Notes under the pieces: generated by a model | Seen by the model: the letters and a program-made list of their open reading frames with translations, nothing else | The model's database searches: none | What the model was told of the DNA's origin: nothing | Translations under genes and position numbers: made by a program | In this document: positions 11,940 to 13,178 of the stretch, in pieces | How the letters are laid out: the number at the start of each line of letters is the position of its first letter | Position numbering within the stretch: position 1 is the stretch's first letter | Assembly (NCBI GenBank): GCA_947648495.1 | Contig: CANSOA010000002.1 | Span: 166,250 to 230,249 of the forward strand | Reading direction: 5' to 3' | Length of the DNA stretch: 64,000 bases | From: an uncultured Clostridium sp. | GTDB taxonomy: Bacteria > Bacillota > Clostridia > TANB77 > CAG-508

Positions 11940-13178
11940 TTACTGCTCTCTACCATACATTTGTAATCGATTTACTGCTAAATCATTCCCAGAGCTTTCA
12001 TATACATACAATCTAAATTTTTTTCCATATACATCACTTTTGAAATAATTTGTTACAGAATACCATCTATTTTTTTCTGCAAAATCTGTTACTAAAATGC
12101 CTTCTTTTTTCAAGTCAGAGATTTCATAAGTTGGACTACAATCCATCCAATTGGACATATCATTATCATCTCCGTCATTTATTTTACATTGTAAAACATA
12201 TTTCTTTGGGAAATAACTGTTTACATCAGCATAACTATTAAATGTTAATTTATAAATACTTATATCCTTTTCTATATTAAATTCATACGCAATCCATGAA
12301 TTATTATATGGTTTAGGACACCATACATTAGCTCCTGTACGGGTATGAGGTTCTCCATCTGTAAATGGATAATATAACTGATAGGCTGCACTATACAATG
12401 GAGAGCCTGTCACAATTCCATTTGAGGTAGCGTCTGTTAATACTGGTATTTTGATTGCATTTTCATCAAAAATATGAGCATATTCTGATTTTTGAAGCGC
12501 ATTAAACCATATTTCATTTTTTATGATTTGAGAGGATGCATAATTACTATTTCCTATTTGTCTAATTGCCATTTCACTTTTCATAATTTCTGACATTAAT
12601 GCATTACTATTTTTTATCATAAAATCTACCGCTGTATTTGAATTCATTAACTGATTTACCATTTGTTCATTTTTTAGTAATCCTGCTAGATTATCAGTTG
12701 CAGAAATGTTTGCTTTTTCACACCATTTTTTTACGATTTCTTCTATGGTTTCTACCTTTTCATCTTCTGTTTTCTGTGTCCAATCTACTTTTCCATTTAC
12801 AATTGGTCCTGAAGAAATTGGTTTGTCATTTTTAGAAACTTCTATTTCTCCTGTTTCTTCATCATATTTTACCTTATATCCTCCTTCTGTCTCTTTTTCC
12901 GTTCTCAACTTTGCCTTAATATAATCATCTATATTTTCAAACTCCGCTTTATAATTGACATATTTTCCTTCATAATATTGCGTGGCAAAATCTGCTATTA
13001 GCAAATTCGCTTCCTCTTGTGCTGAAGCCTTTTCATTGACATCTACTGCATTTGTCGCTCTTTTTAATATGCCATTTTCTCCCGCTACTAAACTTAGTGT
13101 TACTCCTGCTAAAATTAATAATACGATTATGGTTATTACTAACGCTATTAACGTTATACCTTCTTCTTTTCTTAACAT
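11940..13178 (-). CDS. prepilin-like N-terminus (KEEG|ITLIALVITIIVLL) fused to a C-terminal F5/8 type C (discoidin)-like domain
   Basis: The N-terminus resembles a type IV prepilin leader plus hydrophobic alpha1 helix, with Ala at +5 instead of Glu. The C-terminal 150 aa have a discoidin-like aromatic/Gly pattern (...NRWYSVTNYF...AVNRLQMYG). Confidence 0.45.
   Translation of the reverse strand: MLRKEEGITLIALVITIIVLLILAGVTLSLVAGENGILKRATNAVDVNEKASAQEEANLLIADFATQYYEGKYVNYKAEFENIDDYIKAKLRTEKETEGGYKVKYDEETGEIEVSKNDKPISSGPIVNGKVDWTQKTEDEKVETIEEIVKKWCEKANISATDNLAGLLKNEQMVNQLMNSNTAVDFMIKNSNALMSEIMKSEMAIRQIGNSNYASSQIIKNEIWFNALQKSEYAHIFDENAIKIPVLTDATSNGIVTGSPLYSAAYQLYYPFTDGEPHTRTGANVWCPKPYNNSWIAYEFNIEKDISIYKLTFNSYADVNSYFPKKYVLQCKINDGDDNDMSNWMDCSPTYEISDLKKEGILVTDFAEKNRWYSVTNYFKSDVYGKKFRLYVYESSGNDLAVNRLQMYGREQ

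Follow-up and report, generated by a model that had tools for sequence, protein, structure and literature searches.

An orphan gene of an uncultured Clostridium sp. encodes a predicted modular, lectin-bearing minor pilin from a type IV pilus lineage lacking Glu5

The subject of this study is an open reading frame (ORF) on the minus strand of a 64,000-nucleotide stretch of contig CANSOA010000002.1 from an uncultured Clostridium sp. (this whole stretch is hereafter called the window; the coordinates of the features are collected in Table 1). Judged from its sequence, the product of the ORF is a modular, lectin-bearing minor pilin from an unusual type IV pilus lineage which lacks the glutamate at position 5 after the cleavage site (Glu5), and both its incorporation into a filament and its binding of sugars are predicted. 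We estimate at roughly 0.65 the probability that this orphan gene provides a modular minor pilin for a type IV pilus of the PilB/PilT/PilC/PilD type and not for the Tad-like locus present in the window. The pilus machine that the protein would serve is most likely encoded outside the 64-kb window. The initial annotation of this DNA had proposed a pilin-borne lectin, and a type-IV-pilin-like module with Ala at +5 joined to a discoidin-like C-terminal domain is indeed the best reading. By Pfam, each of the two resemblances is too weak when taken alone; independent evidence supports both of them, and both are confirmed as real.

Homology of the N-terminal module to pilins encoded in type IV pilus operons

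Residues 1-134 of the protein aligned end to end with a pilin of 130 amino acids that is encoded in a pilus operon of locus L016 (43% identity, E 1e-32). Related operon pilins of 126-131 amino acids were detected in other Clostridia in operons with the gene order PilMN-PilO-pilins-PilD-PilB-PilT-PilC. The L016 pilin (P0195) is the middle one of three tandem copies. Upstream of these copies lie the genes for a PilM/PilN-like fusion, a PilO-like protein and a membrane protein of 151 amino acids (p151), and downstream of them follow the genes for a prepilin-peptidase homolog (Pfam A24_N_bact, 100 bits), two pilin-like proteins (minor pilins) with Asp at +5 in one and Ser in the other, PilB, PilT and PilC/GspF. 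The PilB-type ATPase of this operon matched the NCBIfam model of type IV-A PilB with an E value of 2e-122 and has an MshE-like N-terminal domain. In loci L020 and L021 a PilD homolog (47-51% identity) comes directly after the short member of the family, and in L022 the short member is placed after PilMN, PilO and p151.

In a survey of metagenome contigs we retained 80 loci holding the module, 20 of which were at least 15 kb long. The machinery genes occurred in the same order in 25 of the 80 loci. Among the loci of at least 15 kb, all ten short focal pilins (118-149 residues remaining in the ORF past the predicted cleavage site) were encoded in a complete operon, between p151 and PilD, and all ten long focal members (331-616 residues past the predicted site) were devoid of machinery genes within 10 kb. 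One further protein, P0154, corresponds to the first half of a modular gene that is split and lies among housekeeping genes. Taken together, the identity to operon pilins and the operon linkage imply that the N-terminal module of the window's protein is truly homologous to the subunits of type IV pili and not a signal anchor with a chance likeness to prepilins.

Signature and predicted fold of the pilin module

The N-terminus of the precursor, MLRKEEGITLIALVITIIVLLILAGVTLSLVAGENGILKRA, as read from the ORF, is identical in its letters to the one quoted in the initial annotation, which had also placed the ORF correctly. About 21 hydrophobic residues (ITLIALVITIIVLLILAGVTLSLVA) follow the predicted cleavage site; the hydrophobic alpha1N segment, ITLIALVITIIVLLILAGV, has Ala at +5, and a conserved G..NG kink precedes alpha1C. 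Comparison of 225 relatives revealed an almost invariant, class III-like signature. Gly is found at -1 in 217 of them and Ala in 8, Ile occupies +1 in 222, and at +5 there are 207 with Ala, 12 with Ser and 6 with Gly, Thr or Val, but none with Glu or Asp. The leaders of these relatives are mostly 6-10 residues long and rich in Lys/Arg, and Ile at +1 is followed by TLIALVITIIVLLILAGV and then by G-x-N-G-I-L-x-x-A. The ~35 N-terminal residues are near-invariant across proteins whose C-termini are unrelated. As to the features of class III signal peptides, the window's protein has the short hydrophilic leader with Gly at -1 and the hydrophobic alpha1N, and it lacks Glu at +5 and a Pfam N_methyl score above the threshold (12.1 bits at a cut-off of 21.2); a relative, P0005, passes that cut-off with 21.8 bits.

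AlphaFold2 modelled the pilin module with a predicted local distance difference test (pLDDT) score of 87-97, confidently up to residue 131, as a long alpha1 helix with a small antiparallel sheet. The model comprises a helix over residues 8-32, a kink at Gly33/Gly36, a second helix over 37-74, a short helix over 83-90 and the antiparallel sheet over 101-131, and it lends modest but consistent support to a pilin fold. A Foldseek search of the PDB with the isolated module gave no significant match, and the family profile, when run against PDB sequences, reached only the MshA pilin and a Geopilin, in both cases over no more than 25-33 N-terminal residues (E 0.06 and 0.44, respectively). The reading of this region in the initial annotation as a prepilin leader and alpha1 helix with Ala at +5 is thus backed by the signature of the 225 relatives, by the AlphaFold2 model and by the 43% identity to an operon pilin.

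An ordinary type II membrane protein with an uncleaved signal anchor, in which the likeness to prepilins has arisen by chance, would account for the sub-threshold N_methyl score and the missing NCBIfam match, as well as for the lack of Glu5 and of a pilin match with Foldseek. However, such an origin is very improbable given the near-invariance of the N-terminal residues in front of unrelated C-termini and the homology to operon pilins that adjoin PilD.

The helical stalk and the discoidin-like domain

The stalk region that follows the pilin module is common only to close relatives of the protein and to P0024, P0110 and P0015. When the C-terminal domain was compared with the PDB by Foldseek, it matched discoidin, CBM32, DOC and IFT25 domains with a probability of 1.0 and E values from 3e-5 to 1e-3. 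These matches included the DOC domain of HERC2 (E 2.9e-5), IFT25, the discoidin domain of muskelin and many CBM32 modules of Clostridium perfringens (E about 1e-3, TM-scores normalised to the target of 0.43-0.55). The sequence follows a pattern typical of CBM32 (…W…WI.Y.F…Y.L…F..Y.Y…L.…YG). Pfam PF22633 scored 14.4 bits at a cut-off of 27.8, and all Pfam matches of the whole protein were below threshold (N_methyl, E 0.15; F5_F8_type_C_2, E 0.059; DUF6650, E 0.041). P0110, which has the same three-part architecture and is 24% identical over the full length (E 2e-19), scored 41.5 bits with PF00754 at a cut-off of 28.2, and P0024 just missed that threshold at 27.5 bits. Only 7 proteins are close relatives of the C-terminal region, and a search of PDB sequences with its profile returned no match. 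A discoidin/CBM32 fold is supported by the model, and sugar binding would be expected from the usual role of this fold.

The last ~150 residues had initially been likened to an F5/8 type C domain; the Foldseek probability of 1.0 and the score of P0110 above the Pfam threshold bear this out. Structure prediction, which had been proposed as a check, yielded an alpha1-plus-sheet module for the N-terminal region and the discoidin-like Foldseek match for the C-terminus.

Size, modules and contexts of the pilin family

In a word-indexed protein search, more than 5,800 proteins aligned solely to the first ~135 residues and continued into unrelated C-termini. A separate, exhaustive search with a profile of the module, run against 1.84 billion cluster representatives, retrieved 31,447 of them at E <= 1e-3 and 19,930 at E <= 1e-10; many matches were 126-157 residues long and represent the module alone. 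The C-terminal modules in a Pfam census of 121 relatives were Flg_new (9), Laminin_G_3 (8), Big_2 (6), DUF285 (4), BspA-type leucine-rich repeats (LRR_5; 4), fn3 (3), F5/8C (2), Glug (2) and single cases such as PT-HINT. Pfam N_methyl was matched at E <= 1e-3 by only 10 of these 121. The long modular members are single genes amid housekeeping genes (nusA-infB-truB, maf, mutS, ruvAB or ftsH), often with a second family member less than 10 kb away, and a rough extrapolation from the dispersed loci suggests many family copies per genome. The scan of a genome collection found only one relative, which belongs to the metagenome-assembled genome of an uncultured Clostridium sp. and has a different genomic context.

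The family is invisible to standard annotation: N_methyl rarely matches it, NCBIfam does not match it at all, and the source records are unnamed. A published census of modular pilins relied on the N_methyl signature (IPR012902), which the present family largely escapes, and the published counts (about 1,200 proteins) probably miss the Ala5 family. In the literature, which our searches covered incompletely, neither the N-terminal motif nor major pilins without Glu5 led to a description of this pilin family. Family members are candidates for attachment to mucus, glycans or other cells. For gut microbiology this would mean that uncultured Clostridia possess a large and variable array of lectins and adhesins borne on pili, some of them possibly phase-variable.

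Some individual members deserve mention. P0119 carries a PT-HINT/intein-like module of the polymorphic-toxin type, P0107 carries Flagellin_N, and P0061, which has the N-terminal motif twice, probably represents two fused genes. At two unrelated loci a small divergent gene for an XRE-type helix-turn-helix protein lies immediately upstream of an orphan modular pilin gene (L004:9653-9868 and L007:9681-9887), and these may be dedicated regulators.

In viral contigs of IMG/VR we detected an ORF of 32 amino acids, MNTKKKNARGITLIALVITIIVLLILAGITNI, that is limited to the leader and alpha1N helix of the pilin family (L013:141-239, L014:1-99 and L015:1763-1861; with an AAGGAGG ribosome-binding site and a hairpin 3' of the ORF). 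We can only speculate that this phage peptide acts as a decoy or poison for prepilin peptidase or pilus assembly, in the manner of superinfection exclusion. A prophage origin of the window's pilin gene was considered and rejected: of 2.9 million viral contigs, a mere 7 contain the module, and the gene has housekeeping genes as its neighbours on the chromosome.

Machinery of the related operons

The peptidase homologs of the related operons (L016:10916-11731 and P0231-P0350) matched only Pfam A24_N_bact (PF06750) and had no NCBIfam match. In addition, they were without an obvious GxGDxK motif, which holds the second aspartate. A search with the PilD homolog returned only close relatives of the L016 protein. 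From these sequences, a divergent peptidase appears to be paired with divergent (Ala5) substrates. The MshE-like domain of the PilB-type ATPase (L016:12630-14264) scored 34.3 bits with the NCBIfam cyclic di-GMP-binding motif at a cut-off of 38, and its match to Pfam MshEN was weak; this suggests cyclic di-GMP control of piliation in the partner operon. No prepilin peptidase was detected when the window was searched by motif.

Orphan minor pilin or surface anchor

Several findings weigh against an orphan minor pilin. The protein has Ala in place of Glu5, and in Streptococcus sanguinis a major pilin with the E5A substitution was processed and not polymerised (PMC6497953). Both Pfam comparisons that the initial annotation had proposed, N_methyl and F5/8C, produced matches, and both matches remained under the curated thresholds; an NCBIfam search with the protein gave no match. 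The C-terminal part of the model, with a pLDDT of 65-88 and two loops below 50, is of moderate confidence only. When the L016 machinery was compared with the 64-kb window by tblastn, no homolog of PilB, PilC, PilD, PilT or PilMN was detected, and the partner machinery, presumably a PilBCD-type operon elsewhere in the genome, is deduced from other genomes. Finally, the peptidase homologs of those genomes match the N-terminal A24 domain and not the catalytic Peptidase_A24 model.

The main rival explanation, unlikely in our judgement, is that the protein is a pilin-derived surface anchor. The N-terminus would then serve for insertion, perhaps with cleavage, and the protein would stay in the membrane or form a short pseudopilus-like stub, so that its binding domain is displayed through the cell wall while the protein is not built into a long pilus. 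The block of polymerisation by E5A in S. sanguinis, combined with the lack of an acidic residue at +5, speaks in its favour, as do the orphans being encoded outside pilus operons, the many dispersed copies per genome, several of them with a second member nearby, and the bulk of the modules, which extend up to ~600 residues past the cleavage site and would be hard to crowd on one tip. However, the whole globular module is conserved between the orphans and the operon pilins (over 134 residues in our case), which would be needless for a mere anchor, and the short pilins of the operons are also without Glu5. The absence of Glu5 therefore cannot tell filament proteins from non-filament proteins in this lineage.

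If the protein is an orphan minor pilin, the precursor would insert into the membrane by its hydrophobic alpha1N helix, and a divergent prepilin peptidase would remove the 7-residue leader after Gly7. The 128-residue pilin module, whose homology to the short operon pilins is established, would permit entry into the filament, probably at or near the tip. The ~100-residue helical stalk would hold the discoidin/CBM32-like sandwich, the fold of which is predicted, off the filament for glycan binding. The protein would be one of a large repertoire of pilins per genome bearing adhesin-type modules (LamG, BspA-LRR, Big_2, Flg_new, DUF285 and F5/8C), in which all members, the putative major pilins included, would have Ala or Ser and not Glu at +5. 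Expression would be autonomous, from the gene's own promoter region and up to its own terminator, and slippage in a (CA)n tract, the length of which varies between strains, probably switches or tunes it.

More broadly, we tentatively envisage, at somewhat less than even odds, a distinct type IV pilus lineage in gut Clostridia with Ala/Ser5 pilins throughout, the tandem putative major pilins of the operons included, a divergent peptidase with a catalytic domain that the Pfam model misses, and a filament that is armed from a genome-wide pool of possibly tens of orphan modular pilins. Each of these would have a different adhesin or lectin module and a regulation of its own, in some cases phase-variable through simple sequence repeats. 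If true, this would amount to a combinatorial and switchable display of adhesins on one pilus, with the window's gene as one cartridge, and the phage peptides of L013-L015, which consist of alpha1N only, would be natural inhibitors of the system.

The filament locus at 42-57 kb of the window

The initial annotation had proposed that the pilin-borne lectin supplies the filament system at 42-57 kb with a candidate adhesive subunit, and had given the distance between the gene and this locus correctly as ~30 kb. The locus comprises genes for a SAF-domain CpaB-like protein, two ParA-like ATPases, a large polytopic membrane protein and five small paralogs, and resembles a type IV filament or Tad-like system. 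The five paralogous small proteins (144-265 amino acids; minus strand, 45980-50400) have an N-terminal hydrophobic helix. Most of them begin with MENASKALI... or MDTSISKALI... and have no Gly-1/ITL cleavage motif, and their Pfam matches are only weak ones, to archaeal DUF families (DUF515, DUF7288 and DUF7186). An undescribed filament of Tad-like or archaeal type may be built from these proteins. The gene for a T2SSE-type ATPase (minus strand, 52524-54637) is divided into three ORFs by two frameshifts, the first within Walker A (GEQG/AGKTT), and Pfam T2SSE was passed only by the conceptually repaired protein (26.6 bits); the split gene is either a pseudogene or an assembly error.

A partnership between the pilin and this locus could be argued from their location in the same 64-kb window, from the resemblance of the locus to a type IV filament or Tad-like system and from the T2SSE match of the repaired ATPase. 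However, the small proteins are without Gly-1/ITLIAL and showed no similarity to the pilin module (best BLASTP E value 2.7), the ATPase gene is broken, the homologs of the pilin are tied to different machinery (PilMN, PilD, PilB, PilT and PilC), and its orthologs occur in other genomic contexts. With unrelated subunits, a broken ATPase gene and no Pil machinery in the window, the proposed partnership is therefore not supported, and we hold it to be hardly credible. The pilin gene should not be annotated as part of this apparently defective filament locus.

Organisation of the gene and variation of the upstream (CA)n tract

The pilin gene is flanked by the genes for a CmpB-like membrane protein and a SpoU-type methyltransferase. 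The hairpin 3' of the gene has a free energy of -21.4 kcal/mol (z -7.6 in comparison to shuffles). With its own ribosome-binding site and terminator hairpin the pilin gene is thus a self-contained unit between its neighbours, and the separate expression assumed in the initial annotation agrees with such a monocistronic arrangement.

Table 1. Position of the pilin gene, its predicted parts and its control elements in the window.
Feature	Coordinates	Strand	Remarks
Whole ORF, modular type IV pilin (pilin module, helical stalk and discoidin-like domain)	11940..13178	minus	412 amino acids plus stop codon
Leader peptide MLRKEEG ending in Gly-1	13158..13178	minus	putative prepilin-peptidase cleavage after Gly7, predicted from the signature in relatives
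Mature pilin module, precursor residues 8-135	12774..13157	minus	alpha1N, kink, alpha1C, short helix, 3-4-strand sheet
Helical stalk or linker, ~residues 140-245	12444..12761	minus	eight short helices, ~10-residue periodicity, pLDDT 63-83
Discoidin / F5-8 type C / CBM32-like beta-sandwich, ~residues 250-412	11943..12431	minus	putative carbohydrate-binding module
Ribosome-binding site AAAGGAG	13187..13193	minus	8 nt 5' of ATG, read from the sequence
Intrinsic-terminator-like hairpin and U-run	11883..11929	minus	directly 3' of the stop codon
(CA)13 tract	13363..13388	minus	185 nt upstream of ATG
Best sigma-70-like promoter match, TTGCAA-17-TATAAT	13458..13486	minus	upstream of the repeat; consensus match only
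Weaker promoter-like site, TTTAAA-16-TATATT	13331..13358	minus	-35 begins 5 nt downstream of the repeat; consensus match only
Upstream ORF of 69 amino acids containing (CA)n, with AGGAG ribosome-binding site	13227..13436	minus	candidate gene; the repeat encodes ...HTHTHTHTH...

The (CA)13 tract is the only dinucleotide run of at least 7 units in the window and in eight loci (L001-L008). It is located between two promoter-like sites and within the small upstream ORF; the number of promoter-like sites in the region was no higher than in shuffles. In strain L023, which is 99.4% identical over 10 kb and has the same gene order, the tract is (CA)24 instead of (CA)13; this is a single comparison, in which the L023 contig ends 5 nt past the repeat. 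The (CA)24 form introduces TAG into the upstream ORF directly after the repeat, whereas with (CA)13 the frame continues to within 48 nt of the start codon of the pilin gene, which occurs only at n = 1 mod 3. A 1-nt indel further down argues against a strong coding constraint on the upstream ORF. The difference in repeat number between near-identical strains makes a phase-variable control region plausible. The length polymorphism itself was observed directly and fits the unstable repeat expected for a contingency locus, which would act on expression. The initial annotation had suggested a possibly phase-variable promoter: the variable tract, 13 versus 24 units, renders phase-variable control plausible, but the repeat is situated outside the promoter spacer.

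Comparison of the pilin gene of the window with L023:239-1477 revealed 15 nucleotide differences in 1,239 nt and 12 changed codons, all of them non-synonymous, and the next 4,800 nt contained 18 differences between the two strains. These very small numbers hint that the pilin is under diversifying selection. No additional repeat-length variants of the leader were retrieved from JGI metagenomes. In an Rfam search of the window and the leader, no riboswitch or RNA family was detected, and a weak SCARNA7 match was an artefact of the CA repeat. The window has no XRE-type helix-turn-helix gene upstream of the pilin gene, and the (CA)n leader occupies that place.

Comparison with known systems

A modular pilin has been defined as a pilin module joined to a functional domain whose role is not confined to pilus biology (Raynaud et al. 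2021; PMC8179133). The window's protein has this composition, with a pilin module at residues 1-135, a stalk and a discoidin-like domain at residues 250-412. In S. sanguinis the modular minor pilins are PilC, which combines a pilin module with Ig-like and ConA-like lectin modules, and PilB, which combines it with a vWA module, and both are located in a tip complex with PilA, which lacks Glu5 (PMC8179133, PMC9934059). As in these proteins, an N-terminal pilin module is linked here to a bulky, putatively ligand-binding module, which is a lectin-type beta-sandwich, in a monoderm host with a PilB/PilT-type type IV pilus (a presumed one in our case), and LamG/ConA-like modules (PF13385) are common in the present family too. 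Unlike in S. sanguinis, the whole present family has Ala or Ser at +5, the gene in the window is an orphan with its own control region, and its module is discoidin/CBM32-like and placed behind a helical stalk.

Reviews regard the salt bridge of Glu5 with the N-terminus of the neighbouring subunit as a general feature of type IV pili, with the tip-capping subunit as the only one without Glu5 (PMC10191384). The minor pilins and pseudopilins of the GspK/PilK and GspI type are similar to the present family in that GspK lacks Glu5 and is proposed to be located at the tip. However, GspK is encoded within an operon, as a single subunit, and has an inserted alpha-domain, whereas Glu5 is missing from the present family throughout, including the tandem short pilins at the usual position of the major pilin. 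Glu5 is treated as near-universal for polymerising type IV pilins, and the ~20,000-31,000 Ala5 clusters, with their short members in complete operons, would represent a natural test of this view.

The CBM32 modules of C. perfringens (NagH, NanJ, GH89 and ZmpB) have the same beta-sandwich fold by Foldseek, but they are attached to secreted glycoside hydrolases or proteases and not to a pilin; compared with them, the window's protein is below the Pfam thresholds and has no PDB sequence match. In an archaeal system, many binding proteins with a prepilin-type N-terminus are encoded away from the assembly genes (compare the model name BasE and the reference Szabo et al. 2007 that is listed in PMC10191384). 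In contrast to the pilin described here, that system is archaeal, its cargo consists of solute-binding proteins and its machinery is another one. Tad/Flp (type IVc) pili belong to the same superfamily of type IV filaments and have small subunits with an N-terminal hydrophobic helix, but the window's protein lacks an Flp-type motif, and its homologs accompany the genes for PilMN, PilD, PilB, PilT and PilC. Finally, simple sequence repeat contingency loci resemble the present gene in having a long dinucleotide tract in the control region of a surface-adhesin gene, with a length that varies between strains; in our case, however, the tract is located in a leader or upstream ORF and not in the coding sequence or in the spacer between -35 and -10.

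Other observations in the window

Two intergenic stretches of the window, at 34970-35250 and 27550-28070, are dense in short imperfect tandem repeats and had no Rfam match. One example is a unit of 25 bp, TTTTTGAGGCTTTTTGGGGGAGGAT, which is repeated 2.2 times just 3' of a minus-strand gene for a ClpB-like protein of 863 amino acids at 35299-37890.

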